Assembly: GCA_035292445.1 (NCBI GenBank)
Contig: DATDQB010000023.1
Span: 89,533 to 153,532 of the forward strand
Origin: Candidatus Omnitrophota bacterium
GTDB taxonomy: Bacteria > Omnitrophota > Gorgyraeia > Zapsychrales > Zapsychraceae
Length of the DNA: 64,000 nt
Direction: 5' to 3'
In this document: piece by piece, positions 1 to 35,484 of the stretch
Numbering within the stretch: position 1 is the stretch's first letter
Layout of the letters: the number at the start of each line of letters is the position of its first letter
Notes under the pieces: model-generated
The model's database searches: none
Seen by the model: only the letters and a program-made list of their open reading frames with translations
What the model was told of the DNA's origin: nothing
Translations under genes and position numbers: made by a program

Positions 1-1900
1 GTTTTGAGTGAGAGCTGATCCATAACCAGCACAATTCGCAGAATTGGGAACACTGCCGCTGCAAGTGCAAGCCGTTACAGAACAGGATTGATTTGTATAT
101 GATCCTGACAGCGAGCCGTTGTTGCATGTGCGGGTCTCACTGACGCAAGAGCTGCCGCAAGAGACAGAAGAGGATTGATAGGCGGTGACGTTATTCCCGT
201 GAAGAACCGTTGCCCCCCACGGCGCCGTACAATTTTGCCCGCAAGAATTGGAATTAGGATTCCATGAGCCGTTGGTACAGGTATAACTGCACGCTCCGCT
301 ATAGCCGCCGATACAAGAACCGGCGGATTGCCCATGATTACTGGCCGTGAGGTTGCAGGTACCTATCGTTTGGGCCGTGCAAGGATCCCAGGGATTGCAG
401 GTGTTGGAAACTCTTGAAAGGCCGCCACTATTGCATTGGTATTGGCAAGAACCGTCTTCAGCGCAGCTTCCGCCCGATTGACCGCTATTAAGAGCCGGGA
501 CCGTGCATGCCGAAGCGCCTGAACCATAAGTTTTAGCAGGACAATTTGGCGCTACGCAAATTCCGCCTGTGTCTGGATCAAACGGCGGCCCTATGGGATT
601 GCTTGGGTCCTGGCAACAAGGATTGCCTCCGGGGGTTACAATATCTGAATCATTGCTGCAATGCCAGTCGCAGCAGCTGCCTCCGCCAACTTCTTCTGAA
701 ACGCATTCAAAGCAACCAACAAGAGAAGTGCAATCAACGATACCTGAACAGCCCCCTTGGCCGCATTGACCGGGTGTTCCACCACCACCGCAGGTATCAG
801 GGGAGGTACAGCTGCCGCAGTTAAGGGACCCTCCGCAAAGATCGCTTATGGTTCCGCAAGTAGCTCCTTGGGCGGCACAGGTTGTTGGCGTACACCCGCA
901 GACATTGGGCGTACCTCCGCCGCCACATGTTTCGGGTGAGGTACAACTCCCGCAGTTTAATGTCCCCCCGCAACCGTTGTTAATACCAGAGCCGCAATTA
1001 AATCCTAAGCTGTTGCAGGTAGCCGGCGTGCAGCAGCTGTTATTAAAACAGACTTGAGCGCCGCAGGAGCAATCAGCAGGGGAGTTCCCGCAGTTCTCAG
1101 CGCAGTTACATTGACCGTCATTAGGGTTGGTCCCGCAATCTTGACAACAGTTTGTGGATGTTTCCGGTTTATCCGCACAACAAATAACAAGGTCTCCACA
1201 GGCATCCGCGCAATCTTTGCATCCGAGCTGATTATTTATCGCTTCACCAGCATCTGCACAGCAAACGCTGTCATTATTATTGCCGCAATCTTCACAGCAT
1301 CCGGTTGTTGCAGTGTATGGGGTTTCACCAACGCTACAGATAGCATCTCCGCAGGGAGGCGTCACGGGGCAAGTCCCGTTGGCTTTCGTTTCGCCGGCAC
1401 CGGCGGCAGAAGCCGTTGATCGGCAGCATTCAGAGTTGCTGGGGGAAGACGTATCGGAAGGGCCAGCGCAATACCAATCACAGCAATTCGCAGGGCCCAA
1501 ATCGTCTAGCATGCCTTCTAGGATACAAGTGCCACAATTGCCGTCATGAGAGGCGCATAGGGACGTGTCACAGCAAGGGCCCACCGTGATTCCGGCCAAA
1601 TTTGATTGCCCACTGACAACGGCTTGGAGGAAACTTTCAAATTCCGTTAGTGTTTTTGTGGGGACAAAAATATCAAAACCGGAAGTATTGCTAATACACC
1701 AATAATTGGACACCCGTGTACCATCGGTAGCCGAGGTCGCGCCAAAAGATGACGTATATTGATCACAAGATGAAGAGTTTTGGCATTGAAACCCTCCGCC
1801 AGTGACGGGAATATTGCCGGGTAATTGGGCAAAGGCAAGCGAGGCCCAGCCCGCCATTAGTAGAAATATGAAAGCTGATTTTTTAAACCTTTGGTCGACC
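1..1900 (-). CDS. Giant cysteine-rich secreted repeat protein, tandem paralog (partial; start codon at 1898-1900, C-terminus runs off window start)
   Basis: The minus-strand frame from ATG 1898-1900 encodes MVDQRFKKSAFIFLLMAGWASLAFAQ..., nearly identical to the N-terminus of the 2014..6516 protein. My hand translation stays open for about 633 codons to position 1. It has the same Cys/Gly/Ser/Asn-rich modules (CGGTLNCGSCTSPETCGGGG, WGATVLHGNNVTAYQSSSVSCGSSC...SGSYTNQSC). Nucleotide identity blocks match 4541-6560. Confidence 0.6.
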
Positions 1901-1935
1901 ATGATTAAAATTGGCGCGCCTTAAGCTCCTCGATT
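1..1935. repeat. Segmental duplication, copy B (mosaic homolog of 4541-6560)
   Basis: Positions 1-60 are identical to 4541-4600. Conserved blocks (about 870-1080 vs 5541-5700; 1380-1935 vs 5960-6560) are interleaved with diverged blocks. The copy includes 35 nt homologous to the 3' end of the tail-fibre gene (1901-1935 vs 6517-6551). Confidence 0.8.
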
Positions 1936-2013
1936 TCTTTTTGACGGGGAGATCTGACCCCAGTTATTCTTTCAAAAATTAGGAAGATGTGAGAAGCGAC
2001 ACCATTTTTTTTC

Positions 2014-5000
2014 TTATCCTAATGAACACGATTCAAAGGGGTATCCAGGGCAATCTGTATCAGTGCAACATGGGCCGCCTCCTTGATCACACGAAAGCAA
2101 AGGCGGACACCAAACCCAGTTGCTACAATTATCTTGTACCGAGCCACAACCAGTCGGGCTCCATCCGTCGCAAGGATCAATAGGGACGCAAGACTGTGAG
2201 CAATTATCGGACTGGCTGGTCCAGTTGCCTCCGCTGTCACAAAAAGCACTCACCGTACCGCTGCAGCCACCCGGGCAGGCGTTCGGTCCCCAATTTGTGT
2301 TGGCTGTCCAACCACCAGGAAGCGTTACGCTGCCGCAGCCATTGCCGGTGGTATAACCTTGCGAAGAGCAGGTTGGCGGGCCCCCGCTGCAAGTCGAGCT
2401 TGTCGGTCCGGACCATACAGAATTTTCACAATCATAGCTAGCCGATCCCGTATCTGGTCCAGTTGAATCAGTGACAGTGGTAGAATTACCGCTGGCCGCT
2501 CCTGTCGTACTACCTGAACAATTAAAACCGCCGGCGCTCCAATTCATTGGTTGAACACCGCAAGCCAGCTTGTATGCCGTACAGATACCAGAGTTAGTAC
2601 AAGGAGGGCCTGAGGCCAGACATTGCCAACGCCACTCGAATGTCGCATCGATCGGGCTAGTGTCTATGGTTCCGGAGGAACAGCCAACGGCTTGTGAAGG
2701 TTGCGAGCCATATGTTCCCGGCGTACTGCCACAAACACCGTTAGTGCAAGGAGCATTACATGTAGCATTAGGCGTGCTGTCACAACAGGATATGGTACCG
2801 TTGGCGGCCGAACCCCCAAAACACAAAGCATCTTCGTCCCCTGAAGTATTACAAGTACCGCTGGTGCCAATCGGGGTCCACGAACCGGAAGAGCATTGGT
2901 ATTCCTGCGTTCCTGAGGTCGTATCGCAAATACTTGATGGACCAGGACTTTTACAGCAGAATGAAGCCCCCTGAGCATGCGTACCTGAAGTACATTGGGC
3001 ATCGGGAAGGGTGTTTGTCCCGTTGCAGCCCGTTCCCCCGCTTGTCCATCCGCTGAATGAGCAAGTATAAGCATTAAGCTGATCGCAGATATAGTTTTGC
3101 CCCGATGTCCAAATGGCCCAACCTCCCGCTGCTCTGGGTTCGCCGCAATAGGCATCGAAAGAGCCGGTAAAATTATCCTGTTCGTTGACAATATAATGAA
3201 ATTCTCCACAACGGCCATCCGCAGGTGTTATACCTTGACAGAAAGTTTGCCAGCCCTTCAATTGTCCACCAGGGCAGCCATCACAACAGTTTTTATAGGT
3301 ATAACTGCCGGAGAGCGTACCTGCCGTACAGGTGCGTGTTTGCGATCTAGAAGAGCATGATGTGTCCCATGTCGGTGTAGGTAGAGGCGTGGGTTCTGAA
3401 TAGGCCGTTACACTTTGAGTGTTCAGTACGGTATCAGGGCCGGCATCCGACCAGGTAATTGGACAGTCTTGGATGCTGGCTTGACAAACGTTGCCTGAAC
3501 AATTATTGCTGCAGCATTGGCTATTAGCTGTACAACCGGCACCGTCACTGCAACAGGAGGTGTTACAAGCTTGTGAGCTTGATCCAGAACAGTTGGCGCC
3601 GCCGCACGAAGGAGCAGGATTATCGCAAGTACGTGTTTGGGTACCACCGCCGCAAGATACGGAACAAGCGCTCCAACCGGACCATCCGCCATTAACAGGG
3701 GAACAGCTGAAGTTACAAGTGCCCCCTGGACAATCAGCGGCGCCTGTACAACATTTGTACAAATTCGAGCATACTCCTTGACCGACCGGACAACAGCCCC
3801 AATACCAGTCGGTAGTACAAGTGTTGCCGCAGGCACCCACAGGAGTTGCTCCGGTGCAACCCGGCGCGCTAGGACCTACACACTTCAGACCGCTGGCACA
3901 AGTCTTGTTGGTACATTGGTTGGCAGCATTACACCAGTTAGCTCCACAGGTAATTGAACAGGACGCATTTGTATATGAACCGGATAAGCTCCCATCATCA
4001 CAAGTACGTGTTTCACTGATACAGGTACACTGCTCTGTACCATTCAAATAAGCGGTAACTGAACTGCCAGAACTGATGCTTCCTCCCCAAGGTAAATTAC
4101 AAGGATTCTTGGTTTTCGAGCACATGCCGCTGGGTGAACAGCCAAGCCCTTGAGGAGAATCGTCACAATGCCATCGCCATTCCGCAGAAGTATCACCATA
4201 AGTTGCCTGGCTAGGAGTCCCTTGGGTACAGCCATCCACAACACTGTTATCGCATTGACCGTTGTCACATATCCCACAACTTTCCTCTGCGCCCGGACAG
4301 CTTGGAGAGCCTGTGCATTGAGTATTAGTGCAATATGTATTGCCGTCATCGCTACAAGTGGTGCAGTCTGTGCCTGCGCCACCATCACAGCATATAAGAT
4401 TAGCCGCTATGGGTGTTCCGTTGTATCCCACGCAACTGTTACAAACACATGAACCTCCGGAGGCCGTGTAACCGTTAATACATGTAACAGCGCAATGATC
4501 GCCCCCTCCAGGACAAGAGGAAACAGCTGTTGCCGTTCTGTTTTGAGTGAGAGCTGATCCATAACCAGCACAATTCGCAGAATTGGGAACACTGCCGCTG
4601 CAAGTGCAAGTCGTTACTGAACATGACTGGTTCGTATAAGAACCGGATAAAACGTCGTTATTACATGAGCGGGTCTCACTGGCGCAGGAGCTGCCGCAAG
4701 ACACGGAAGAGGATTGATAGGCGGTGACGTTATTCCCGTGAAGAACGGTCGCCCCCCACGGCGCCGTACAATTTGCCGAACAATTATTTGTTTTATTGAC
4801 CCAAAGACCGACGTTGTTACAATCCGCGCTGACCGTTCCGGTACAATTTCCCGGGCAGGCTGTTGAATAGGGAGTGCTTAGCGCTTGACCGCCCGGCAAG
4901 GTGACATTACCACAGCCGTTGCTGGTCGTGTAGGCTTCGTCAAGACAGGCTGACCCTACGCACGTAAAGTTGACTGTGGCCCCGTTCACCGAATAGTTAA

Positions 5001-6516
5001 AAGTTTGACCGTTACTTAACCCGGGATGGGCGGTCGTAAGGACGTTCCCTGCACAGAACGGCCCGAAAGTATTGTTATCGTCGTCTGTATATAAACTAAC
5101 GCTGGCAGGATCTCCGCTGCCGGAAGTCAGTCCTCCCGGGTTGGCGCATACTCCAGCCGGCGCGCGATCCGAACGCGACCAGCTGGTGGCGTTGTTAGCG
5201 CCGGAGCCCGAGACATTCCAAAGCGCGGCAAAGGTGCCGCTTCCTCCAACAATGGCCCGGGTATTGCACGTTACGCTGCTCTCATTGCCCCAGCAATCCA
5301 TACGCAAACATCCTGAACCTGATCCAGGACTGGAAGGGTTACAATTAGCATCGCAAGCGCCTGTACAACCAAAGCCAGACCCGTTACAGGCGGCACCGGC
5401 CGAGCCCTTGCAATTGGGGGTATAATCCCCGCACGTATCAAATGTATTATGACAACAGCCCGAGCAGCATTCATCATTTTGGCTACACGGGTCACTATCG
5501 GCAAAACATGAAGGAGTACCACAAACGTTTGCAACGCCGCCACCGCCGCATGATTCGGGAAATGTACAACTCCCGCAATTTAATGTCCCCCCACAACCGT
5601 TGTTAATACCAGAGCCGCAATTAAATCCTAAGCTGTTGCAGGTAGCCGGTGTGCAGCAGCTGTTATTAAAACAGACTTGAGGGTTGGTACAGGCGCAGTC
5701 GGCAGGCGAGTTGCCGCAATTTTCGCTGCAGTTACACGCGCCATCATTGGTTTGCGACCCGCAATCCTGGCAGCACGTATCAGATCGTTCATTCAGATCC
5801 GCACAACAAATGACGGTGTCTCCGCAGGTATCCGCGCAATCAGAGCAGTATCTCTGATCATTTACTACCTCTCCATCGGCGGGGCAGCAAAAGCCGTCAC
5901 TGTCTGTGCCGCAGTCCTGACAGCAAGCGGGGTTAAAGACTTCACCAACGCTACAGATAGTATCGCCGCAGGGAGGCGTCACGGGGCAAGTACCGTTGGC
6001 CTTAGTTTCAAGGGGGCCGGCGGCAGAAGCGGTGGACCGGCAACACTCAGTACCGTTATTTTGGGCAGACGTATCGGAAGGGCCAGCGCAATACCAATCA
6101 CAGCAATTCCCTCGCCCTAACATGCCTTCATCGACACAGGTGCCACAATTGCCGTCATGCGGGGCGCATAAAGTAGTGTCACAGCAAGGGCCCACCGTGA
6201 TTCCGGCCAAATTTGATTGCCCGCTGACAGCGGCTTGGAGGAAACTTTCAAATTCCGCTTGTGTTTTGGTGGGGACAAAAATGTCAAAACCGGAAGTATT
6301 GATAATACACCAATAATTGGATACTCTTGTCCCATCGGTAGCCGAGCTCGAGCCAAAAGATGATGTATTGAGGTCACAATAAGGCGTATTACTTGGGCAT
6401 TGAAACCCTCCACCAGTGATGGGAATATTGCCGGGTGTTTGAGCAAAGGCAAGCGAGGCCCAGCCTGCTATCAGCAGAAATGTGAGAATTGATTTTTTAA
6501 ACCTTTGGTCAACCAT
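2014..6516 (-). CDS. Giant (1500 aa) secreted cysteine-rich modular protein with a thrombospondin type-1 repeat and internal repeated modules; likely surface adhesin/fibre component
   Basis: Single long ORF with an N-terminal signal peptide (MVDQRFKKSILTFLLIAGWASLAFAQ). Cys is roughly 15%. A canonical TSP1 motif (WSGWSACSVSCGGGTQTRTCDNPAPSCGG) lies at about nt 3547-3690. It is tightly coupled to the upstream tail-fibre gene (2-nt gap). Repeated modules: three WG..SVTAY...SGSYTN..SC, two GCG.VTLPGG, two EWRW.C. Confidence 0.75.
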   Translation of the reverse strand: MVDQRFKKSILTFLLIAGWASLAFAQTPGNIPITGGGFQCPSNTPYCDLNTSSFGSSSATDGTRVSNYWCIINTSGFDIFVPTKTQAEFESFLQAAVSGQSNLAGITVGPCCDTTLCAPHDGNCGTCVDEGMLGRGNCCDWYCAGPSDTSAQNNGTECCRSTASAAGPLETKANGTCPVTPPCGDTICSVGEVFNPACCQDCGTDSDGFCCPADGEVVNDQRYCSDCADTCGDTVICCADLNERSDTCCQDCGSQTNDGACNCSENCGNSPADCACTNPQVCFNNSCCTPATCNSLGFNCGSGINNGCGGTLNCGSCTFPESCGGGGVANVCGTPSCFADSDPCSQNDECCSGCCHNTFDTCGDYTPNCKGSAGAACNGSGFGCTGACDANCNPSSPGSGSGCLRMDCWGNESSVTCNTRAIVGGSGTFAALWNVSGSGANNATSWSRSDRAPAGVCANPGGLTSGSGDPASVSLYTDDDNNTFGPFCAGNVLTTAHPGLSNGQTFNYSVNGATVNFTCVGSACLDEAYTTSNGCGNVTLPGGQALSTPYSTACPGNCTGTVSADCNNVGLWVNKTNNCSANCTAPWGATVLHGNNVTAYQSSSVSCGSSCASETRSCNNDVLSGSYTNQSCSVTTCTCSGSVPNSANCAGYGSALTQNRTATAVSSCPGGGDHCAVTCINGYTASGGSCVCNSCVGYNGTPIAANLICCDGGAGTDCTTCSDDGNTYCTNTQCTGSPSCPGAEESCGICDNGQCDNSVVDGCTQGTPSQATYGDTSAEWRWHCDDSPQGLGCSPSGMCSKTKNPCNLPWGGSISSGSSVTAYLNGTEQCTCISETRTCDDGSLSGSYTNASCSITCGANWCNAANQCTNKTCASGLKCVGPSAPGCTGATPVGACGNTCTTDWYWGCCPVGQGVCSNLYKCCTGAADCPGGTCNFSCSPVNGGWSGWSACSVSCGGGTQTRTCDNPAPSCGGANCSGSSSQACNTSCCSDGAGCTANSQCCSNNCSGNVCQASIQDCPITWSDAGPDTVLNTQSVTAYSEPTPLPTPTWDTSCSSRSQTRTCTAGTLSGSYTYKNCCDGCPGGQLKGWQTFCQGITPADGRCGEFHYIVNEQDNFTGSFDAYCGEPRAAGGWAIWTSGQNYICDQLNAYTCSFSGWTSGGTGCNGTNTLPDAQCTSGTHAQGASFCCKSPGPSSICDTTSGTQEYQCSSGSWTPIGTSGTCNTSGDEDALCFGGSAANGTISCCDSTPNATCNAPCTNGVCGSTPGTYGSQPSQAVGCSSGTIDTSPIDATFEWRWQCLASGPPCTNSGICTAYKLACGVQPMNWSAGGFNCSGSTTGAASGNSTTVTDSTGPDTGSASYDCENSVWSGPTSSTCSGGPPTCSSQGYTTGNGCGSVTLPGGWTANTNWGPNACPGGCSGTVSAFCDSGGNWTSQSDNCSQSCVPIDPCDGWSPTGCGSVQDNCSNWVWCPPLLSCDQGGGPCCTDTDCPGYPFESCSLG

Positions 6517-6560
6517 GATTAAAATTGACGCGCCTTAAGCTCCTCGATTTCTTTTTTTAA
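4541..6560. repeat. Segmental duplication, copy A (5' third of the giant gene plus the tail-fibre gene 3' end)
   Basis: Homologous to 1-1935; see copy B. Confidence 0.8.
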
Positions 6561-7784
6561 CGCTTCGATTTGCGCCTGTTGTTCTTTAACGGCTTGGATG
6601 AGCGGCGCAACGAGATTTCCGATCTTCACTGTTTTCATTTTTGTTTGTGGATTTGTAGCCACCAATTCCGGTAAAACAGTTTCAACATTTTGGGCGGTCA
6701 CACCCACATCGGCAACGCCGTTTTCTTTCCAGTTAAACTTAACGCCCTCCAGCTTCATAATGGTATCTAGGCCGGAGACGGGTTTGATATTTTCTTTAAG
6801 ATTTTCATCTGAGACATAAAAAAAAGCATGCGCGGTTACATTGCCAGAGCCAGTACCAACAGTATTATTTGTGGTCACATATAAATCTCCTCTGATCCAA
6901 GTTATTCCATTAGCATTGGTTCCAGGGAGAATAGTTGCGCTATCACCCACAAGAAGTCGGGGGGAGGCAACGGCTGTGTTAGGTATAGCGCCTGGAGTCC
7001 CGCCAATGCCGACGTTGCCGGCGTTATTTATTGCGACTCGTTCCAGATTGTTTGTGCCAAATCTCAGAAGGCCATTCTCGTAGTTCCATATTTGACCATC
7101 AGCTGCGGTGTACTGTTCAAAAATCAGCCCATCGGTGGCAGTGATACCTGTGCCACTATTCGTGGAGCGCACAGTTCCCCCACTCGTCGCCGCAGCATTA
7201 TGAATATGCAATTTACTATTTGCTGTCGTCGTCCCGATGCCGACGTTGCCGGCGTTATTTATTCTGACTCGTTCCGCATTATTTGTGCCAAATCTCAGAT
7301 AGCCATTCTCGTAGTTCCATATTTGACCATCAGCTGCAGTGTTTTGTTCAAAAATCAGCCCATCGGTGGCAGTGATACCTGTGCCACTATTCGTGGAGCG
7401 CACAGTTCCCCCACTCGTCGCCGCAGCATTATGAATATGCAATTTACTATTTGCTGTCGTCGTCCCGATGCCGACGTTATTGGTTGCTGTCGACAAATGG
7501 ACGTAGCCGGGGCCGCCAACGGTATAGGACCATAAATCATAAACAGGGCTGACGACGCCTGCGGCGGTGCACATCATTAATTGATTGCTGTTATTGATCC
7601 ATAAAAGTCCTGTATTGCCGGAGGCGCCGGAAACGCAAGTAGGAACTGACGCTGTGGGGACAAGGCGGAGCTGGTTATACACACCGAAAGGAGCGGGGTA
7701 ATAGGTGGATAATGAAAGCGTTTCGGCATGGGCGATCAAGGAGAGGTTTACAATAAAGATGGTAAGAAAGAATACTTTCTTCAT
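6519..7784 (-). CDS. Tail-fibre-like secreted protein with C-terminal S74-type intramolecular chaperone (endosialidase chaperone) domain
   Basis: Signal peptide (MKKVFFLTIFIVNLSLIAHA). Repetitive NVGIGTTTANSKLHIHN... fibre-like repeats. The C-terminus (VSDENLKENIKPVSGLDTIMKLEGVKFNWKENG...GNLVAPLIQAVKEQQAQIEALKKEIEELKARQF) is typical of the self-cleaving chaperone domain of phage tail spikes and bacterial fibre proteins. The stop lies 2 nt from the start of the giant gene. Confidence 0.8.
   Translation of the reverse strand: MKKVFFLTIFIVNLSLIAHAETLSLSTYYPAPFGVYNQLRLVPTASVPTCVSGASGNTGLLWINNSNQLMMCTAAGVVSPVYDLWSYTVGGPGYVHLSTATNNVGIGTTTANSKLHIHNAAATSGGTVRSTNSGTGITATDGLIFEQNTAADGQIWNYENGYLRFGTNNAERVRINNAGNVGIGTTTANSKLHIHNAAATSGGTVRSTNSGTGITATDGLIFEQYTAADGQIWNYENGLLRFGTNNLERVAINNAGNVGIGGTPGAIPNTAVASPRLLVGDSATILPGTNANGITWIRGDLYVTTNNTVGTGSGNVTAHAFFYVSDENLKENIKPVSGLDTIMKLEGVKFNWKENGVADVGVTAQNVETVLPELVATNPQTKMKTVKIGNLVAPLIQAVKEQQAQIEALKKEIEELKARQF
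7011..7472. repeat. Near-perfect 231-bp tandem repeat (2 copies, 77 aa each) inside the tail-fibre-like gene
   Basis: The protein block GIGTTTANSKLHIHNAAATSGGTVRSTNSGTGITATDGLIFEQNTAADGQIWNYENGYLRFGTNNAERVRINNAGNV is duplicated with 4 aa differences. DNA copies are nearly identical, offset by 231 nt (the gccgacgttgccggcgttattta motif occurs at 7008 and 7239). Confidence 0.9.
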
Positions 7785-7883
7785 TTTTTATACCTCGCAG
7801 ATAAAATATTTTTATTAAACTTAGTATCTATCTATCCTATAGTAAAGTCAAGAAGATACCTGATTTTTTGGGGTATTTATCAA

Positions 7884-7916
7884 ATAAAAAAACCTATTCT
7901 TTTGAAAGAATAGGTT
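7884..7916 (-). terminator. Rho-independent terminator (minus strand)
   Basis: Perfect inverted repeat aacctattcttt/aaagaataggtt. On the minus strand it is followed by a T7 run (plus-strand aaaaaaa at 7884-7890). Confidence 0.6.
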
Positions 7917-8215
7917 TAGGAGATTCTCGATGTCTGCAACTGGCTATCCTGACCGTCAATAGCGATCGAGGACCCTATAGCTTTGTTCCTGCTTCGCCAA
8001 AGCGCTTTCGCCTTTGGCTTCGCAGGACTCTGCGAAGCTCAAACATGAAAATTTTTGAGCGTAGCAGAGGCCCTATCCTTTCAGATAGTTTACCTTTGAA
8101 GACAACTTGTCAATATGTATCAATGGACAACCCAATGCTTATATAAAGTATTTAATATATATATGGAAAAGTCAACCTGTACTTGTCGAAGGACCGGGGC
8201 AGCTAAAAGGGGGCT

Positions 8216-9163
8216 TTAAGACGATACCGGGCCCCGTTTATCCCGGACAAAGTTGCTTTTATCCTGGGTCTTGGCAAAGCGCTTGAGCTCGGCCCCGATC
8301 TCGGAAATCTGGGCCACATGGGTGATCTTTTGGGCGGTATTACTGACGACCCCGATGGATACGGACAATAAGCCGAATTTTTGCGTTTGGCCCTGGCGGT
8401 CTTTGGCCACGATATAGCCCCGTTCGAGGTCTTCTTTGGAATAAAACGACGGCACCTTTTTATCAAAATCCTTAATTACGGCTTTGCAGACATTGTCCAT
8501 AACGGCATCTTCAGTAATGAACACATAATCATCGCCGCCGATATGGCCGATAAAAGCGTCTTGCCCGCCGATATTGCGGACGTTCTTGATGAGGATACGG
8601 GCCAATTCTTTAATGACCTCATCGCCTTTTTCAAATCCATACTTATCGTTGTAGGCCTTGAATTTGTCGATATCCGCGTAGCCGACGGCGAAAGGCTTGC
8701 CCGATTCGATCTGATGGCTCATCTCTTCCATGATGGAGGTGTTGCCTGGAAGATGCGTCAGGGGGCTTGCATCCAGGCTGCGGCTGGTGCGCCGCAGGAT
8801 CATTTTGATGCGCGCCAGAAGCTCATCCGGCGCGAAGGGCTTGACCATGTAATCATCGACGCCGGCTTCAATGCCGTCGATCCTGTCTTTGACCTCGCCT
8901 TTTCCGGTCAGCATGATGACGGGGATGTGGGAAAGGAGGATGTCTTTCTTCAAAAGCCTGCAAAATTCGCGGCCGTTCATGACCGGCATCATGTAATCGC
9001 AAAGGATAAGATCCGGCAGTTTTTGCTGGACGAGCTTTAAGCCTTCTTCGCCGTTTCTCGCCTGAAAGACCTCATAATTCTCGGACAACGTCAGGTCCAG
9101 GACATCCAGGATGTCCGGGTCGTCGTCGACCGTAACAATTTTTTCTTTTCTCGAAGTAGGCAT
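8216..9163 (-). CDS. Response regulator, REC + GGDEF-type diguanylate cyclase domain (active-site motif reads GGDDY)
   Basis: The N-terminus has receiver hallmarks (VDDDPDILDVL, LILCDYMMP, MLTGKG). The C-terminus is a GGDEF fold (YADIDKFKAYNDKYGFEKGDEVIKELA...GHIGGDDYVFI). Confidence 0.85.
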   Translation of the reverse strand: MPTSRKEKIVTVDDDPDILDVLDLTLSENYEVFQARNGEEGLKLVQQKLPDLILCDYMMPVMNGREFCRLLKKDILLSHIPVIMLTGKGEVKDRIDGIEAGVDDYMVKPFAPDELLARIKMILRRTSRSLDASPLTHLPGNTSIMEEMSHQIESGKPFAVGYADIDKFKAYNDKYGFEKGDEVIKELARILIKNVRNIGGQDAFIGHIGGDDYVFITEDAVMDNVCKAVIKDFDKKVPSFYSKEDLERGYIVAKDRQGQTQKFGLLSVSIGVVSNTAQKITHVAQISEIGAELKRFAKTQDKSNFVRDKRGPVSS

Positions 9164-9171
9164 TTTAATAT

Positions 9172-10701
9172 TTATTTGTTTTTAGATGGCTGGGCCGGCT
9201 GAGCCGCAGGGGCTTCCGCTTTTTTAGGTTTGACCGGAAGCGTAAAATGGAACGTCGTTCCCTGGTTGACCGTGCTTGTTACCCAGATTTCCCCGTGATG
9301 GGCCTCAACGATTTTTTTCGCCAGGGCCAACCCCAAGCCGGTCCCCTTGACGTTCTGGTTTATTTTATTATCAACGCGGAAAAATTCACTAAAAAGTTTT
9401 CCCAGATCATCTTCGGGGATGCCGATGCCGGTATCGGAAACGCCGATTTCCACAAGGTCTTTTTCTTTATCCCATGTCGCTTTAACCGAGATTGTCCCGT
9501 TTTCTGGCGTAAACTTGACGGCGTTGCCCACAAGGTTGATGAAAATGCGTTCTACCTGGCTCGAATCATAAATCATGTTGGGAACGTTTTTATCCACGTT
9601 TAATTCCCAATTGATGTTTTTGTTTTTCATCTGCGGCGTTAGTAGATCATGCACGTTTTCAGCCGTTTGGCGCAAGTCGTGCTCGGTCATTTTCATCTCC
9701 ACGCGCCCCGATTCGATGCGGGAGATGTCCAGTAGTTCATTGATAAGATTGACGAGGTTATCCGAGTGGAGGTTGATTTTCTCCAGCCGTTCTTTGACCT
9801 TTTCCGGGATCTCACCGAGCTTGCCGGTTATCAAAATGGCGGCATACCCTTTGATCGAAGTCAAGGGCGTTCGCAGCTCATGGGAAACGGCGGAGATAAA
9901 ATCGGACTTTGTTTTGCTTATTTTTTTTACCTCTGCCAGGGCGTCTTCCAGCTGTTTGGTGCGGTCCTGCACTTTGGATTCCAGCGCCCGGCTGGAGCGA
10001 TAAACCTGTTCGAATAAACGGGCGTTTTCCAACGACTGCCCGATCTGGTTGGCTAAAATGGAGAGGATTTCTTCGTCACCTTCGGTCACGGCCGCCGCCG
10101 ACGATTGGTTACCGACAAAAGCGATCCCGATAAGGCCGTTTTGGGTGAGGATCGGGGAAAGCACAAAATGTTCGCTGCCGAAAATATTTTGGATCGCTTT
10201 TTTTCTTTGCGTGGCAGCGGCGACGGAAGAGAAGATATGGCCTTGCGTCAGGGCCTCCAGCAGGCTTGAATCTTTCTTGAGGCCGTTGAGGATATATTCG
10301 ATGCCTTCGGGGGCGTAACCGACGTTGACCCTGGGCTTAAGCTGTTTGCGTTCATCGTAAAACAGGATCAGCATTTTATCGAAATCCAGATTTGTCTGAA
10401 GCGATTCATTCAAGCGGTGAAAGATTTCGTTCTCATCGAGAGTGGTACTGATAAGCCGGGACGTTTTATGAAGCGCCTCCAGGCCTCCCAAGCGTTTGTC
10501 GGATTCTTCCTGGGCCTTATTAAGCTCCAGATCCGTTTTAACGATCAGTTTGGCTTGCTCATCGAGTTCGTTGAAGGATTTTTTGAGTTTAAGAAGAGAG
10601 CCTCTGGTTTGATTGAGTCGAGAATTTTTTGATAAAATAATAAAGATCAATACGCAGATGACAATAAAGGCAAGGATATTGAAAATAAGGGAGATGCTCA
10701 T
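9172..10701 (-). CDS. Sensor histidine kinase (N-terminal TM, coiled coil, GAF-like, HisKA, HATPase_c)
   Basis: H-box SHELRTPLTSIKGY. N, G1 and G2 boxes (NLVGNAVKFT, DTGIGI, GTGLGLALAKKIVEAHHGEIW). Confidence 0.85.
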   Translation of the reverse strand: MSISLIFNILAFIVICVLIFIILSKNSRLNQTRGSLLKLKKSFNELDEQAKLIVKTDLELNKAQEESDKRLGGLEALHKTSRLISTTLDENEIFHRLNESLQTNLDFDKMLILFYDERKQLKPRVNVGYAPEGIEYILNGLKKDSSLLEALTQGHIFSSVAAATQRKKAIQNIFGSEHFVLSPILTQNGLIGIAFVGNQSSAAAVTEGDEEILSILANQIGQSLENARLFEQVYRSSRALESKVQDRTKQLEDALAEVKKISKTKSDFISAVSHELRTPLTSIKGYAAILITGKLGEIPEKVKERLEKINLHSDNLVNLINELLDISRIESGRVEMKMTEHDLRQTAENVHDLLTPQMKNKNINWELNVDKNVPNMIYDSSQVERIFINLVGNAVKFTPENGTISVKATWDKEKDLVEIGVSDTGIGIPEDDLGKLFSEFFRVDNKINQNVKGTGLGLALAKKIVEAHHGEIWVTSTVNQGTTFHFTLPVKPKKAEAPAAQPAQPSKNK

Positions 10702-10702
10702 A

Positions 10703-11890
10703 TCAGTTAACCGCCAGCACCACCATGCTTTCGTTTTGAAGATAAGGTTTCTTGATGCGTTCTACCGATTCAAAAGGGCAGATCTCGCCGTGGGCGTACA
10801 TGCCGAATACGGGGATGTCTTGGCCGAAGATTTCTCTGATTTTGGCGATCTCAAGAATGGCGCCTCGGCCCAGGAGCTTTAGCCGGGACATCGATTCGAT
10901 GATGATCACAAGCTTGGCTTTCTTCCCTAAAAGGTTATTATGGGCTTCCTGGGCGGCTTCGGAGGCGGCCTCTTTGCAGGAGTCCTTGTTGCCGATCATG
11001 ATGTGAACTTCCGACCCGTCCGGCACCCCTCCCTGACATACAATACTCCCATCCTCTAGAATGTCAATAGCATTTCTCAGCAAGAAATGGTTACTTTCCT
11101 CGATAAATATTCCTAAAGGGTAAAGGATGGACATTTGTCCCAGTTGGGTGGCGCGTAAATCCTGATACGCTTCATCGAAATATTCCTCATACAGATGGGA
11201 TGCCTTTTTCCCGTCAATCGTTTTGATGATGTTGCCCTCGGCCTGGGTGATGACGCGGGGTTTTCCCAAAGGCCGCCAGCCGTGGCGTCCGCTCACTCCC
11301 ACACTCATCTGCCCGCCCATGATCAGCCCGCAAGCGGACATCTCCAGCGCTTGGGAACCGAAGATCTGGAAATTTTTTTTGAAATGGAAATCATCGCAGC
11401 TGCCGGCCCCGACCAGCGGAAAAACGTTGCCGAGCACTTCCTGGACGCCTTTTAACAGAAGGGAGCTGTCGGCAATTTCTCCGTCGATAAAGAAAAGGCA
11501 GACGTGCCGGCCGTGTTGCCCGAAATCCGCGACGATATTTTTGGCCAGATCGCTTCCGGCCATGCGGATGTTGGTGGGGGTGATATCGGAAACGGCGCCG
11601 ATGCCGAATTTCATCTCATCCGAGGCGATGGCCAAAATGCCGATTCCGTTGGTCATGATTTTTTCCGAAAAGATGATGCCCGCGCTTGAGCAGCCGATCG
11701 CCTTTGACCCGGGAAAGAGGTTATCAATGGCCTGGGCGATGGTATCAGGGTCGTGGTGAATGGTGCTGAAGATTAACACCAGATCGGGCTTCGTTGACTG
11801 AAGAGAGGATTTGATTTTCTGCGCCGCTTCTTTGGTGGCGGTGAGCGTATCAACGGTTTGGCTTGAGCCTATTGCGATGTGTGTGGCCAA
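10703..11890 (-). CDS. FIST-domain sensory protein
   Basis: Two-part FIST N/C architecture. It is co-operonic with the HK (1-nt gap) and the RR. Confidence 0.7.
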   Translation of the reverse strand: MATHIAIGSSQTVDTLTATKEAAQKIKSSLQSTKPDLVLIFSTIHHDPDTIAQAIDNLFPGSKAIGCSSAGIIFSEKIMTNGIGILAIASDEMKFGIGAVSDITPTNIRMAGSDLAKNIVADFGQHGRHVCLFFIDGEIADSSLLLKGVQEVLGNVFPLVGAGSCDDFHFKKNFQIFGSQALEMSACGLIMGGQMSVGVSGRHGWRPLGKPRVITQAEGNIIKTIDGKKASHLYEEYFDEAYQDLRATQLGQMSILYPLGIFIEESNHFLLRNAIDILEDGSIVCQGGVPDGSEVHIMIGNKDSCKEAASEAAQEAHNNLLGKKAKLVIIIESMSRLKLLGRGAILEIAKIREIFGQDIPVFGMYAHGEICPFESVERIKKPYLQNESMVVLAVN

Positions 11891-12173
11891 GGCGTGAGAC
11901 CTCCAGATAATTTAATAGCGTATGTACAAGAGTGGTTGTAAAAATTGATACAAAATTTACGGATTTATGATATAGTACACACCCACGATTTATTGTAATC
12001 AAAAAAAGTATACACTAAGTTCATTGAGCTGTTAACGAATATTAGAGAAATTATTGCCCCCATCGTTAGTTTTGCTTTAAATTTGCGGAACGTAAGTGAA
12101 CGCAAATTTTAGGCAAAACAATCCCGAGGGAAGCTTCAGCGACCGAGGGACTACAACATAAAAGAAATATTTT

Positions 12174-12249
12174 GGCCCCATCGTCTAGCCTGGCCCAGGA
12201 CGCTTGGTTCTCAACCAAGAAACGCGGGTTCGAATCCCGCTGGGGCCAT
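12174..12249 (+). tRNA. tRNA-Glu (anticodon CUC)
   Basis: The cloverleaf was folded by hand: acceptor ggcccca/tggggcc; D-stem gtc/gac; anticodon stem cttgg/ccaag with loop ttCTCaa; T-arm gcggg ttcgaat cccgc. Confidence 0.8.
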
Positions 12250-13085
12250 TAAATTCCCTTCAATTTGACCTGCGCCCAAACGGGCAAATGGTCGCTCGCC
12301 TTCTGGTTTTTGATACTTCCCGACCCAAGCACATCCATATTCTTCACAAAGATGTAATCCATGAGGCTTTTTTTGTTGAAGAGATACCAGTGCTTGTAGC
12401 TCCAGTCAACTTCCTTGGTGGCCAGCGTAAAACGGTGTTCCTGGAAGGCCTCTTCGATGATTTGGCGGTTGAATTTGGTGAAGGTGTTAAAATCGCCGGC
12501 AATAATGCAGTAATCAATGGGCGGGACGGAATGTAACAGCCGTTCCATCTGATTTCTGCGCTGGAACGGATGCAGCCAAATCCTCATATGAAGGCTGTAG
12601 GCCATGACAAATTTATCGCCGATTTTGATGACCGCCCCGACGGCAATGCGCTGCAGCTTGTCAGGGTCCAAATGCGGCAGAATGACTTTTTTGTCGTGGA
12701 TAATGGGCCATTTGGTCAGGATGGCGTTGCCAAAATCTTGGTTGTAGAGAGGATGCCGGACAGCCGGGTAATACACATAATTGTAGTTTAATTTCTTCGC
12801 GATTGTCTCAACGTCTTGGGGCTCCATCTCCTGCAGGAAAATGATGTCGGCACCGGCCAAATCCTGATGGGTTTTCAGGAGCTCACCGGCCAGATCCGTT
12901 TTTTTGGAAAATTTCACGTTGTAGGAAACGACTTTGATCGTGTCTTGAGCAGGGCTAGTTGGCGAGGGTCCGCTTGCGGAAGAATACCGCGGCCCCGAGA
13001 GGTCAGTGTAATTTTCTCCGTCTGTGACCAGGCTGCAGCCCAGAGGGGTTAAAAGTATCAATAATAAAAATAATCTTCTTATCAT
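12249..13085 (-). CDS. Endonuclease/exonuclease/phosphatase (EEP) family lipoprotein
   Basis: Lipobox LLTPLGC. EEP motifs (IIFLQEME, IIAGDFNTF, ASDHLPVWAQV). Confidence 0.75.
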   Translation of the reverse strand: MIRRLFLLLILLTPLGCSLVTDGENYTDLSGPRYSSASGPSPTSPAQDTIKVVSYNVKFSKKTDLAGELLKTHQDLAGADIIFLQEMEPQDVETIAKKLNYNYVYYPAVRHPLYNQDFGNAILTKWPIIHDKKVILPHLDPDKLQRIAVGAVIKIGDKFVMAYSLHMRIWLHPFQRRNQMERLLHSVPPIDYCIIAGDFNTFTKFNRQIIEEAFQEHRFTLATKEVDWSYKHWYLFNKKSLMDYIFVKNMDVLGSGSIKNQKASDHLPVWAQVKLKGI

Positions 13086-14545: not shown

Positions 14546-15364
14546 ATGCGCGTTTTTAATAAGAGAAAGCTTTATACAGCCTTTTTAGCCGTTCTTTTCC
14601 TTTTTACCAGTCAAGTTGTTGTTGCGTATACGGTTTCCTGCCGGGCGGTTATTTTTTCCGATGCGACCAAAGTCAAACGCCTTTACGGCAAGCGTGTGCA
14701 TGAGCGCGTCGTTCCGGCGAGCACCGTTAAGGTGATGACGGCATTGTTGGCGCTCGAACATCTTTCGCTGGATGAATATGTGACGGTCAGCCAGAATGCT
14801 ACGTATCCGCAGCCGAGCAAGATTTACGTCAAGGCCGGCGAACGGTATAAGGTGCGCGATCTGCTTTATGCGGTCTTGCTCGGCTCTGCCAATGACGCCG
14901 CCGTTGTGTTGGCGGAGGCGGTGGCCGGGACGCACTGGAAATTCGCCCAGATGATGACCCAGCGCGCCAAGCAACTCGGCGCCAAACATACCCGCTTCGC
15001 CAACGCTCACGGCTTGCCGACAAAAAAGAAAGACCCCCAATACACGACCGCTTATGACATGTACCTTATTTTCCGTCAGGCCATGCGCCATGAATTTTTC
15101 CGCGAGGCGATCAAGCTTAAAAATAGGACCATCACATCCAGCCATGGCCGCCGGATCGCCCTTAGAAGCCATAATAAGATCTTGTTTAAGGGTTGGAAAA
15201 AAAATATTTATGGCAAGACCGGCTATACCCGCTCTGCCGGCCCCTGCTTTGTCGGCACGACACAAAAAGGAGACAGCACGTTGATCATCGCTGTTTTTAA
15301 CTGTAAAGACCGGTGGAACGATATTAAATATATTATTTCCCATTACGGGGGAATCTCATTATAA
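14546..15364 (+). CDS. D-alanyl-D-alanine carboxypeptidase (peptidase S11, PBP5/DacA-like)
   Basis: SxxK (PASTVK), SxN (GSANDAA) and a KTG-like KTGYT motif, after an N-terminal membrane/signal segment. Confidence 0.8.
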   Translation: MRVFNKRKLYTAFLAVLFLFTSQVVVAYTVSCRAVIFSDATKVKRLYGKRVHERVVPASTVKVMTALLALEHLSLDEYVTVSQNATYPQPSKIYVKAGERYKVRDLLYAVLLGSANDAAVVLAEAVAGTHWKFAQMMTQRAKQLGAKHTRFANAHGLPTKKKDPQYTTAYDMYLIFRQAMRHEFFREAIKLKNRTITSSHGRRIALRSHNKILFKGWKKNIYGKTGYTRSAGPCFVGTTQKGDSTLIIAVFNCKDRWNDIKYIISHYGGISL

Positions 15365-15460
15365 TAAAAACTCAATCAAGAAAAGAAGTGATTGAAATTT
15401 TTATAAATCATGGTATCCTTTTTATGGACTTATAATTTTTTTATCTTTAGAAAGGAGTTT

Positions 15461-16309
15461 ATGATGGAAAACAAAGGGTTTAAATTGGCGCTAGTAATCG
15501 CGCTCGGTGTTTTTTTGGGCGTTCTTGTCGTGTCCGCCCAAAAGCAGGACGCTCTTCTTAGAGAAGTTTTAGGCAGGCAAAATCAGATGCTCCAAGCCCA
15601 GATGAGGCTTGATTCAAAAGTGGGCAGCCAGGATATGGCGGGCGCCAGGGGTTTGATGCAGTCAGAAATCGATAAGCTCACGTCAAAAATCAGTGATTTG
15701 GAAACTCGCTTGGCCCGTTTAGAATCTCAGCCGCGCCCTCAACAGGTTCAGCAGCAGCCCACGCCGCAGCAAATGCCCCCGCCGGATACGACCGTCCATG
15801 AGATTCCCGTGGCCCATTCTGTAGTTGGAGGCGCTAAAGACGGCAAGGTCACTATCGTTGAATTCGTCGATTATCAATGTCCTTTTTGCGCGCGTTTTCA
15901 CCCTCCGATGGTGGAGGCGGCCAAAGCATTTCCCGGGAAAGTTAAGTATCTCTTGAAGCATTTTCCGTTATCGTTCCATCCGCAGGCAAAGCCGGCAGCC
16001 AAAGCAGCGTTAGCCGCAGGCGAGCAAGGCAAATTCTGGGAAATGACCGAGCTTATTTTAGGTAATCAAACGCAACTGACGGATCAGCAATTCGAAGCCT
16101 ACGCCAAACAGCTTGGGCTGAACGTCAAGAAATATCTGGAAGATTATAAAAATAAAGACGCTGAATACGAAAAAATCCTTAATACGGACATGGAGTTGGG
16201 CGGTAAGGTCGGAGTGCGGGGAACACCGTCGTTTTATATCAACGGCCGCGTGAGCAACTCCCGCGATGCCGCCAGCTGGAAGGCTGAGATAGAAAAACTC
16301 TTGAAATAA
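15461..16309 (+). CDS. Membrane-anchored DsbA-family thiol:disulfide oxidoreductase
   Basis: AGGAG RBS before ATG 15461. TM helix, coiled-coil and Q/P-rich linker, then a thioredoxin fold with CPFC. Confidence 0.75.
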   Translation: MMENKGFKLALVIALGVFLGVLVVSAQKQDALLREVLGRQNQMLQAQMRLDSKVGSQDMAGARGLMQSEIDKLTSKISDLETRLARLESQPRPQQVQQQPTPQQMPPPDTTVHEIPVAHSVVGGAKDGKVTIVEFVDYQCPFCARFHPPMVEAAKAFPGKVKYLLKHFPLSFHPQAKPAAKAALAAGEQGKFWEMTELILGNQTQLTDQQFEAYAKQLGLNVKKYLEDYKNKDAEYEKILNTDMELGGKVGVRGTPSFYINGRVSNSRDAASWKAEIEKLLK

Positions 16310-16335
16310 GTAATATAAGTATTAATATTTCCAAA

Positions 16336-16375
16336 AAGGCCATGTTTCTCTTAAGGAGCGTGGCCTTAATTTTTC
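16336..16375 (+). terminator. Rho-independent terminator after the dsbA-like gene
   Basis: aaggccatg...cgtggcctt stem (one G-U) followed by aattttt. Confidence 0.55.
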
Positions 16376-16440
16376 ATTTGATAAAAGGGGCAATTCATTA
16401 TATATTTGTGGGACGTTGAAATTAGGTTAACTTAAGAAAA

Positions 16441-16494
16441 GAGGCCGCCCGCCAAGAGCGGGCGAGCCTCGTTCATCCCGCCTTTGGCGGGATG
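16441..16494 (+). promoter_or_regulatory. Two GC-rich hairpins forming a structured 5' leader immediately upstream of the L27-like gene
   Basis: gaggccgcccgccaagagcgggcgagcctc (nested 11-bp stem) and catcccgcctttggcgggatg (9-bp stem, loop ttt). A GGGAG RBS follows at 16508. Confidence 0.5.
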
Positions 16495-16518
16495 ATAAAA
16501 ATGAACGGGAGCAATATC

Positions 16519-16806
16519 ATGGGTGGTCGCGTAGGTGGCATATCGCATAAATTTTACCGGGAAACCAGAGGCATTAAAGTAAGCGGCGGCCAGGTTGTCA
16601 AAGCCGGCACGATTCTCACGCGCCAGGGTCACAAATGGCGGCCAGGCATTAACGTAATCGGGTTAAATCATTTGACGGCTAACGTCGAAGGTGAAGTTTA
16701 TTTTACCCGTAAAAAAAGTCGGTTTAATAAATCCATCACATACATTAATATCAAACCGGTTAAGATCAAAGCCAAAGTAAAATCAACGGCAGCTGCATCC
16801 AAATAA
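16519..16806 (+). CDS. Divergent ribosomal protein bL27-like protein, standalone (no rplU upstream)
   Basis: GGQVVKAGTILTRQGHKWRPGINVIG...HLTANVEGEVYF aligns with the L27 core (GxxIxxRQRGT...G.NVG...TLFA..G.V.F). The N-terminus and a K-rich C-terminal tail are atypical. A good RBS precedes ATG 16519. The stop lies 1 nt from the glmS start. Confidence 0.5.
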   Translation: MGGRVGGISHKFYRETRGIKVSGGQVVKAGTILTRQGHKWRPGINVIGLNHLTANVEGEVYFTRKKSRFNKSITYINIKPVKIKAKVKSTAAASK

Positions 16807-16807
16807 T

Positions 16808-28388: not shown

Positions 28389-28465
28389 GGGGGATTAGCT
28401 CAGTTGGTTAGAGCGTCTGACTTACATTCAGAAGGTCGAGGGTTCGATCCCTTCATCCCCCACCA
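28389..28465 (+). tRNA. tRNA-Val (anticodon UAC), CCA encoded
   Basis: Hand-folded cloverleaf: acceptor gggggat/atccccc; anticodon stem tctga/tcaga with loop ctTACat; T-arm gaggg ttcgatc ccttc. Confidence 0.8.
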
Positions 28466-28521
28466 TTTAAAAAAATCTTTACAAAGTTATTTGGGTAAAT
28501 TAGACTAAGTATCAATTTTAG

Positions 28522-28599
28522 GGGGTCGTGGTGTAGCCCGGTTAACATGTCAGCTTGTCACGCTGAAGATCGCGAGTTCAAATCTCGTCGACCCCGCCA
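28522..28599 (+). tRNA. tRNA-Asp (anticodon GUC), CCA encoded
   Basis: Acceptor ggggtcg/cgacccc; anticodon stem tcagc/gctga with loop ttGTCac; T-arm gcgag ttcaaat ctcgt. Confidence 0.8.
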
Positions 28600-30159: not shown

Positions 30160-30332
30160 TTTTTCTTAATTGATTTCAGGATTTTATCCAGCTCCGCTTT
30201 CTTGTAGAGCCGGTAATTATTCATGGGATGGCGGTAGGGTTTAAGTTTCCCAAGATTATCCCAATTACGCAGGGTTTGACCGGTCACTTTTAGATATTCA
30301 GCCGCTTCTTTGATCGTCATGTAATCGCTCAT
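30156..30332 (-). CDS. AlpA/Xis/MerR-like helix-turn-helix DNA-binding protein (58 aa)
   Basis: Hand translation: MSDYMTIKEAAEYLKVTGQTLRNWDNLGKLKPYRHPMNNYRLYKKAELDKILKSIKKK. The stop overlaps the recombinase start (ATGA). Confidence 0.6.
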   Translation of the reverse strand: MSDYMTIKEAAEYLKVTGQTLRNWDNLGKLKPYRHPMNNYRLYKKAELDKILKSIKKK

Positions 30333-30407
30333 GTTTATTTCTCCTTAACCTTATAAAACATTATAATCAATATTTCGTTAGGTTCAAGTGATTTATTGTT
30401 TAGAATT

Positions 30408-30959: not shown

Positions 30960-30972
30960 ATCTATATGTCCT

Positions 30973-31467: not shown

Positions 31468-31501
31468 AAAATTGTTATCCTCTCAGAAATTTCCTAAATC
31501 A

Positions 31502-33957: not shown

Positions 33958-34110
33958 TATGAGAACCTTTACATGATGGTTTTACGACGGCTTTAAAGAA
34001 GCGCAGGAAACTTTCCGCCCGGGCCGCGGCCTCATCAAAAGCCAGCGCCTCGCCGCATTCTTTGAAATAGATTTCCTGAAATTCTTTGATCGCTTGTTCG
34101 CTTAGCATGA

Positions 34111-34158
34111 TTTATTTGGGCAATAATAAAAGATTCCGTAACATTTGCTTACGGAATC
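34111..34158 (-). terminator. Rho-independent terminator (minus strand) after the 385-aa hypothetical gene
   Basis: Perfect 10-bp inverted repeat gattccgtaa/ttacggaatc, followed on the minus strand by a U-rich tract. Confidence 0.6.
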
Positions 34159-35427: not shown

Positions 35428-35484
35428 AGAAAATGACTATTTTTATATTATAATGTTTTATAATCTTTTTGTAAAGGAGCGGTA

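Follow-up and report, generated by a model that had tools for sequence, protein, structure and literature searches.

Two adjacent cysteine-rich genes, referred to below as A and B, were analysed in a window of 64,000 nucleotides (nt) from Candidatus Omnitrophota bacterium (contig DATDQB010000023.1, positions 89,533 to 153,532), where they follow a gene for a fibre protein with a Peptidase_S74 (S74) domain. B is probably an old tandem copy of A on the same strand of the chromosome, in which the blocks shared with A have been partly converted between the copies and the rest has been remodelled by modules. Positions given below are those of the window, unless the source contig L001 is named, and features lie on the minus strand unless stated otherwise. 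The S74 fibre gene, A, and B are all minus-strand genes and follow one another in this order from 5' to 3'. Paralog A (2014–6516) encodes 1,500 amino acids (aa), has a Sec signal peptide (AFA|Q) and 11.9% cysteine, and is built of small Cys-rich modules; an earlier note on this DNA had called it a giant gene, which overstates a protein of this length. As for B, translation places its first 634 codons at 1–1902, with the start ATG at 1902–1900, and the gene leaves the window at the left edge. The complete paralog, recovered in full from the source contig (L001 14615–19093), has 1,492 aa, 13.7% cysteine, and a Sec-type signal peptide as well. L001 is a 205-kb ENA metagenome contig retrieved through an exact match to the A protein, along with a 19.8-kb contig from a second sample.

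BLASTN of window 1–2013 against 2014–8000 reports two collinear matches, namely 914–1942 versus 5537–6556 (81.7% over 1,045 columns, E=0) and 1–239 versus 4540–4777 (89.5%, E=1e-84). At the scale of the full contig, the DNA homology covers L001 9961–10974 versus 14575–15597, and 11732–12419 versus 16268–16955. The copies are thus adjacent, lie on the same strand, and are collinear by both BLASTN and protein alignment, which is what a tandem duplication predicts. Block I (A aa 1 to ~333; 5537–6516) matches B at window 914–1902 with ~80% aa and 81.7% nt identity. It includes the signal peptide and a rare N-terminal domain, as well as Cys-rich motifs of the CCxDC type and a single module of the Myxococcota type (CxPxTC...CGG.L.CG.C). 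Next to it lies a variable cassette, V1 (A aa 334–580; 4778–5536), opposite window 240–913 of B (aa 337–556), in which both the length and the modules differ. No BLASTN match between A and B is found in V1, and its protein Smith-Waterman score has a z-value of 0.5 against composition-matched shuffles. Block II (A aa 581–804; 4105–4776) matches B at window 1–239 and beyond with ~90% aa identity, and Block III (A aa 805–885; 3862–4104), which follows a 52-aa module present only in B, is ~60% identical to B aa 831–908. The C-terminal ~600 aa of the two proteins are unalignable (Smith-Waterman z=1.3 and 0.2 versus shuffles). Regarding the right-hand boundary of the duplicated unit, a comparison of the sequences downstream of A and downstream of B gave only an 8-nt match, judged to be at chance level.

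This map largely bears out the homology between 1–1935 and 4541–6560 that had been read from the letters of the window, which is measured here as 1–1942 versus 4540–6556 in two blocks. The alternation of conserved and strongly diverged blocks is likewise real, with V1 lacking DNA homology altogether, and similarity caused by low complexity alone is ruled out by the collinear protein alignment (~80% for aa 1–333 and ~90% for A 581–804). The signal peptides, however, are not identical as had been claimed: of 25 residues, 21 are the same, and A has SILTFLLIAG where B has SAFIFLLMAG. The identity of positions 1–60 to 4541–4600 holds for the letters but not for the coordinates, which are 4540–4599, and the identical run extends to 91 nt on the contig.

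The junction between the copies carries a 43-nt relic (1903–1945) of the S74 gene, which forms the immediate 5' leader of B. It contains the last 11 codons of that gene and its stop (1905–1940) together with the 2-nt spacer, and differs by a single mismatch from its source, the last 43 nt of the S74 gene with spacer at 6517–6559. The upstream 421-aa gene ends ...KKEIEELKARQF (longer form ...ALKKEIEELKARQF) 2 nt before the ATG of A, and the reading frame of the relic, ...QKEIEELKARQF*, stops 2 nt before the ATG of B. Because the final stretch of the upstream gene recurs directly before the start codon of B, the duplicated unit began inside that gene, as the earlier note had proposed; its placement of the relic at 1901–1935 is corrected to the coordinates given above. 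In other words, sequence from the far end of the unit precedes the second copy, as is expected at the junction of a tandem duplication. A probable decayed extension of the relic (1946–1974) is ~65% identical to the S74 gene further upstream, which is a weak signal (shuffle P about 0.004 over ~30 nt), and suggests that the ancestral breakpoint was located ~70 nt inside the S74 gene, with only the proximal 43 nt retained. The remaining part of the spacer, the 3' flank of A (1975–2013), has neither homology to the S74 gene nor a terminator-like hairpin on the minus strand.

From −43 to +27 around the start codons, A and B show only 2 differences in 70 positions, compared with ~15% nt divergence at the coding 5' end. 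The near-identity of the relic and the first 27 coding nt is probably due to selection on the initiation region, or else to repeated gene conversion. We infer from this pattern that the conserved 43-nt piece is the translation-initiation region inherited by B, which would make the locus a clean example of a duplication whose second copy brought this region with it in the form of a remnant of the gene before it.

Nei-Gojobori synonymous divergence (dS) in successive sub-blocks amounts to 0.36–0.37, 0.94, 0.58, 0.53, 0.85, and 2.4, the last value belonging to Block III, and the ratio of non-synonymous to synonymous divergence (dN/dS) in the shared blocks ranges from 0.08 to 0.28. The dS values of 0.36–0.94 together with these ratios show that the duplication is old and that purifying selection acts on both copies. 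The synonymous divergence is also uneven, with proportions of synonymous differences (pS) of 0.29 versus 0.54 in adjacent sub-blocks, which are ~3.5 standard errors apart. Two runs of complete identity between A and B stand out from this background. The longer one, 91 nt at 4520–4610, corresponds to window 1–71 of B plus 20 nt past the window edge and is a candidate gene-conversion tract; the other one, 56 nt at 5594–5649 (971–1026 in B), lies just before the V1 cassette. In simulations that keep the identities at each codon position, the longest run expected is ~27 nt; a 91-nt run was reached in none of 5,000 simulations (P<0.0002), and the 56-nt run has P about 0.001. V1 itself is directly flanked by the most identical DNA of the two genes (93–98%). 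Long identical runs combined with uneven dS indicate, at the level of sequence, short-tract gene conversion between the copies.

The earlier note had seen here the signature of recombinational diversification. The tandem mosaic structure behind that reading is confirmed, but the recombination that can be detected appears mainly homogenising, and four assemblies of the locus show no variation in structure. Module turnover is instead deduced from its end state, that is, from non-homologous cassettes and the duplication of a module in B. The signs of remodelling are the second Myxococcota-type module of B, the non-homologous cassettes, and the inserted 52-aa module of B, a copy, with 86% nt identity, of a module that lies 214 aa further downstream in the same gene. 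Under the proposed mechanism, an ancestral operon consisting of an S74-fibre gene followed by a Cys-rich gene would have undergone tandem segmental duplication whose upstream breakpoint fell within the fibre gene, ~45–70 nt from its 3' end, and B would thereby have inherited the translation-initiation region of A as a non-coding relic. Two blocks (aa 1–333 and ~581–885) would then have stayed alike, partly via short-tract gene conversion between the copies, and elsewhere, namely in the V1 cassette, at the 52-aa insertion of B, and throughout the C-terminal ~600 aa, entire small disulfide-rich modules would have been gained, lost, duplicated, or replaced.

The population comparison covered four independent assemblies, obtained from three ENA samples (ERZ27254861, ERZ27254865, and ERZ27254795) and one Joint Genome Institute sample (Ga0209640). 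All four have the order A, spacer, B with the same 111-nt spacer, and run into unique flanks on both sides. Over 7–15 kb they differ at only 6 sites, all of which fall in B (L001 14860, 15639, and 18375–18389); A, gene C (a third Cys-rich gene beyond B), and the flanking genes are invariant. Four of the 6 sites are clustered and change CANPSTISC to CDAPSTVSC, and the remaining two are Cys342Ser in the extra Myxococcota-type module of B and one synonymous site. No local donor sequence was found for the clustered 4-nt polymorphism. The three shorter contigs (L002, L090, and L091) start inside repeated DNA, at L001 9276, 11895, and 11801; two of these starts are located in Block II near the 91-nt identical run and one in the internal repeat of the fibre gene, which is consistent with assembly graphs breaking at repeats. 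The homology map, the relic, the divergence statistics, the identical tracts, the intact open reading frames (ORFs), and the common arrangement in four assemblies are all read directly from the data.

Several results weigh against the history proposed above or against parts of it. No orthologous locus of a sister species was found in the collections searched, which bears on both the dating of the duplication relative to speciation and a phylogenetic test of conversion. No canonical Shine-Dalgarno sequence lies close to the start codon of A or B, which bears on selection at the initiation region; such a sequence is present in only 14 of 44 genes of the window. Comparison of the four assemblies for copy-number and module variation, which the earlier note had envisaged, revealed none and thus gave no support for diversification still under way. 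For the N-terminal domain common to both proteins, the AlphaFold model (pLDDT 74, pTM 0.70) has no match in PDB. Finally, the C-terminal ~600 aa, which align no better than shuffles, also consist of different module types in the two proteins.

The last point suits an alternative in which B was an independent modular Cys-rich gene whose 5' ~2.6 kb, including 45–70 nt upstream, was overwritten by the 5' region of A through long conversion or illegitimate recombination, and so does the gradual fading of homology after aa ~885, where dS reaches 2.4 in Block III. Such a partial duplication or chimera, however, requires two adjacent genes of the same rare kind beforehand, and the similar lengths (1,500 and 1,492 aa) and general module vocabulary of A and B speak against it. 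Moreover, V1 is a case in which no homology is left within sequence that was undoubtedly duplicated, and the lost 3' homology is therefore not diagnostic; on balance we regard this alternative as unlikely, though not negligible. Plain divergence without recombination, with the shared blocks being merely the most constrained parts and the rest having drifted past recognition, draws on the low dN/dS, and constraint certainly contributes. It does not account for the significant difference in synonymous divergence between adjacent sub-blocks, for the 91- and 56-nt runs that are identical at every third codon position, far above expectation, for a V1 cassette that differs in length and modules and has sharp borders beside 93–98% identical DNA, or for an inserted module that was copied from elsewhere in B, and is considered improbable. 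Programmed variation, with B serving as a donor cassette that switches A (as in pilE/pilS or vls) or the two forming a phase-variable pair, is less probable still. Adjacent paralogs, conversion-like tracts, and the restriction of all variable sites to B would fit it, but the ORF of B is complete, has its own start codon, encodes a signal peptide, follows a conserved leader, and is under purifying selection, there are just two copies, and the four assemblies are structurally identical. The annotated genes on either side of the locus include no recombinase or reverse-transcriptase domain, although no dedicated repeat search was run, and the sole recombinase candidate in the scanned part of the window (genes up to 36.9 kb) is a serine recombinase ~22 kb off in a separate element.

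An assembly artefact, i.e., two strain variants of one gene mis-joined in tandem, might be suspected from the metagenomic source and from the contig ends of the three other assemblies inside repeated blocks. We give it hardly any credence: the four independent assemblies join A to B by the same spacer with unique flanks, the copies are only ~82–84% identical in the blocks and unalignable elsewhere, a divergence well past that of strain variants, and the longest stretch they have in common (91 nt) falls below the final k-mer length of the assembly to which the contig names point (k141). A prophage tail module, in which the "tail-fibre" gene, A, and B would be phage receptor-binding genes, is just as hard to believe. 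In its favour, PHROG tail-fibre families match the S74 protein at 1e-29 (aa 99–419), and many viral contigs carry relatives of this protein at 27–51% identity. However, the S74 protein carries a signal peptide of the Sec type, neither A nor B has a PHROG match or a relative on a viral contig, and the neighbours are chromosomal genes (FIST, histidine kinase, GGDEF regulator, tRNA-Glu, rpe, pyrG, and purF). The two-component/GGDEF system, tRNA-Glu, rpe, pyrG, and purF around the S74 gene do not form a phage structural block, and the nearest mobile element, which is also the only one seen, begins ~21 kb away at tRNA-Asp. The tandem duplication of A, partly converted and partly remodelled, thus remains the preferred account of B.

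The upstream S74 fibre gene (6519–7784) encodes 421 aa with a signal peptide (MKKVFFLTIFIVNLSLIAHA|E), a repeat region resembling a beta-helix, and, at the C-terminus, an intramolecular-chaperone domain of the Peptidase_S74 type (Pfam PF13884, 55 bits versus a cutoff of 22) with an SDxxxK motif (VSDENLK). It also contains a recent 77-aa internal tandem duplication (7005–7478; aa 103–183 and 180–260) with 96% nt identity over 242 nt, the two copies of which account for the "terminator-like" matches on the plus strand at 7005 and 7236. According to phmmer against PDB, the protein resembles Bd2133 (E=7.7e-7 over 56 residues) and Bd2439 (E=1.8e-3), both matches being short, and also a solved phage long tail fibre. 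Bd2133 and Bd2439 belong to the MAT family of Bdellovibrio bacteriovorus, cellular trimeric adhesive fibres that act in prey recognition, and in 13 of 21 MAT members the C-terminus is an S74 domain bearing an SDxxxK motif (Caulton et al. 2024, PMC10769870). The earlier name "tail-fibre gene" is therefore apt as to domain-level likeness, but not as to a phage setting, given the signal peptide, the Peptidase_S74 domain, and the chromosomal neighbours; judged from its sequence and surroundings, the gene is best described as a MAT-like cellular fibre and not as part of a prophage. Like the S74 subfamily of MAT fibres, it is a cellular gene with a signal peptide and a C-terminal S74 domain with SDxxxK, and its fibre region has sequence similarity, in short matches, to Bd2133 and Bd2439. 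In contrast to MAT, the protein is much shorter (421 aa) and comes from Omnitrophota, not Bdellovibrionota, and it has adjacent Cys-rich partner genes, which are not known as a MAT feature. Further characteristics of MAT fibres are a conserved ~130-aa beta-rich domain after the signal peptide, trimerisation, and self-cleavage.

As for transcription, a consensus scan, which yields pattern matches only, reports a terminator-like hairpin (7917–7890) and then a sigma-70-like promoter match (7851–7823) upstream of the S74 gene (7823–7917 together), and no terminator-like site on the minus strand between S74, A, and B. Since the hairpin and promoter-like match precede S74 and nothing comparable lies between the three genes, they are probably co-transcribed as one operon.

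The N-terminal domain common to A and B (6082–6441 and 1462–1827, respectively) is very rare; the remaining modules are widespread. When the N-terminal 291 aa were searched exhaustively by HMMER over 1.84 billion representatives, only four other proteins were returned, all four of which start, as read from their sequences, with a hydrophobic, signal-peptide-like N-terminus. The loci of two of these relatives were examined, and neither has a tandem copy or an S74 gene upstream; one relative, P0102, adjoins a gene for an IS200-type transposase. Syntenic copies beside pyrG were sought in 80 genome loci, the closest of which are from Omnitrophota, and none was found. A metagenome scan for additional family members returned only this same locus, and no further paralogs of A or B are present in the other 56 kb of the window.

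Full-length A and B match nothing in Pfam, NCBIfam, or PHROGs. A fragment of A scanned alone (aa 944–989; 3550–3687), which is part of the sequence unshared with B, nevertheless contains a thrombospondin type-1 repeat (TSR) with 31.7 bits for Pfam TSP_1 versus a cutoff of 21.6, and matches the TSRs of thrombospondin-1 in PDB with E=6.6e-13 (phmmer). No TSR was detected in B. The Myxococcota-type module occurs once in A and twice in B. A homology search with full-length A returned 101 proteins, and besides A and B themselves all 99 matched only this ~60-aa module; P0003, which looked like a relative, was rejected on the ground that it is just an array of the same module. With A aa 578–1100 as the query, 564 proteins were returned, and among the best 120 of them most matches fall on a ~56-aa module of the form "PWG...AY...C.SQTRTC.NG.LSGSY...C". 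It is arranged in tandem arrays, with 425 copies in 101 of these best 120 proteins, whose named sources include Bdellovibrio, Methylomagnum, and Parcubacteria, and in some of the 564 proteins a type IV pilin N-terminus or an S74 domain is present as well. Copies of this PWG module are found at 4606–4779 and elsewhere in A and B. It has no Pfam match, and its AlphaFold model (pLDDT 94.5) has no significant PDB neighbour, the best being a sushi-like domain of beta2-glycoprotein I (E=7.4, TM 0.5). The 56-aa module appears to be an undescribed domain family.

Beyond B, just past the left edge of the window, the contig continues with a convergent Cys-rich gene, C (L001 19151–21181, minus strand), and then rpe, pyrG, and purF. 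The C protein has 676 aa, 15% cysteine, two TSRs, and CCxDC-type motifs in common with A and B, and its N-terminus resembles a class III (pilin/archaellin-type) signal peptide with 20.4 bits, below the Pfam threshold of 23.7. It looks like a third member of the Cys-rich cluster. Regarding function, the signal peptides, the 12–14% cysteine, the TSP_1 repeat, the module relatives that carry pilin or S74 domains, and the adjacent MAT-related fibre together suggest an extracellular location for A and B, as disulfide-bonded proteins of an adhesive or matrix-like kind that would act with the trimeric fibre in cell-cell or host contact. The term "surface protein" used in the earlier note is likewise a deduction from the signal peptide and extracellular-type modules.

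Tandem paralogs that are partly homogenised and partly remodelled are a standard route of bacterial surface-protein evolution, and the phenomenon itself is already known; what is new here is the particular protein family and its Omnitrophota setting. A familiar case is Helicobacter pylori, whose babA, babB, and babC are paralogous adhesin genes that evolve by gene conversion. Like these, A and B have conserved segments around a divergent one, short conversion tracts, and full-length secreted or surface genes in both copies. Unlike the bab genes, A and B are directly tandem and probably in one operon, have a relic of the upstream gene at their junction, and have entirely unrelated 3' halves; they are also Cys-rich module arrays rather than beta-barrel outer-membrane proteins, and no switching between the copies was observed. 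The setting, in turn, is an uncultured Omnitrophota with a probable operon that includes a Bdellovibrio-MAT-like fibre, with 12–14% cysteine, a TSR in A, and a rare N-terminal domain.

At the level of modules, A and B resemble the Cys-rich repeat proteins of Myxococcota, with which they share the CxPxTCxxxGxxCGxxxDGCGGxLxCGxC module, one copy in A and two in B. The Myxococcota proteins, however, are long arrays of that single module, whereas A and B use it among many other types. Proteins with this module are often misnamed "tryptophan synthase alpha chain" in databases. A, through aa 944–989, and C, through its two TSRs, are comparable to extracellular TSR proteins such as thrombospondin-1, properdin, and UNC5, but the host is bacterial, A has a single TSR, and the remaining architecture is unrelated. 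Within the same phylum, the giant proteins of Omnitrophota (Seymour et al. 2023, PMC10066038; West-Roberts et al. 2023, bioRxiv 10.1101/2023.11.21.568195) are likewise poorly annotated large secreted or surface proteins with a proposed role in cell-cell attachment. They reach up to ~40,000 aa, in contrast to 1,500 and 1,492 aa for A and B, which have no Pfam domain when scanned as full proteins, and their repeats are dockerin and thrombospondin type 3, not type 1 (PMC10066038; bioRxiv 10.1101/2023.11.21.568195). The main text of these two papers mentions neither cysteine nor tandem copies nor paralogs. The lineage is suspected to depend on other cells (PMC10066038).

A tentative and rather doubtful extension of these comparisons is that the S74 fibre, A, B, and the TSR/pilin-like C form a host- or prey-contact locus of ultra-small, host-dependent Omnitrophota, in which the N-terminal domain would stay fixed as an anchor and exchange between the paralogs, through conversion tracts and the replacement of cassettes around it, would adjust what is bound. 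If true, the locus would be a cellular analogue of the diversification of phage receptor-binding proteins, built from a previously undescribed N-terminal domain. If A and B do mediate attachment, they would provide a small, tractable set of candidate contact proteins.

The pyrG product near the locus is 70–77% identical to its counterparts in metagenome-assembled genomes of Candidatus Omnitrophota, which places the organism in this phylum. On the other side, upstream of A, the 421-aa gene is followed by a GGDEF response regulator, a GAF histidine kinase, a FIST protein, and tRNA-Glu. The FIST-domain protein, the GAF histidine kinase, and the response regulator, whose GGDEF domain is partial, occupy 8216–11890 immediately upstream of the fibre operon and on the same strand; a c-di-GMP-type signalling module beside putative adhesin genes could be regulatory. 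A 299-aa DsbA/thioredoxin-like protein is encoded ~9 kb from the Cys-rich genes (15410–16309, plus strand) and may be relevant to the oxidative folding of proteins with 12–15% cysteine. An Rfam scan reported tRNAs only. A probable integrated mobile element, unrelated to the duplication, occupies 28389–41675 at tRNA-Val/tRNA-Asp, where the GC content drops to 0.37–0.44. Besides several ORFs without a Pfam match, it carries a large serine recombinase (28558–30159) that overlaps the 3' end of tRNA-Asp, a Prim-Pol primase (32026–33957), and a type I restriction-modification methylase (35485–36948).

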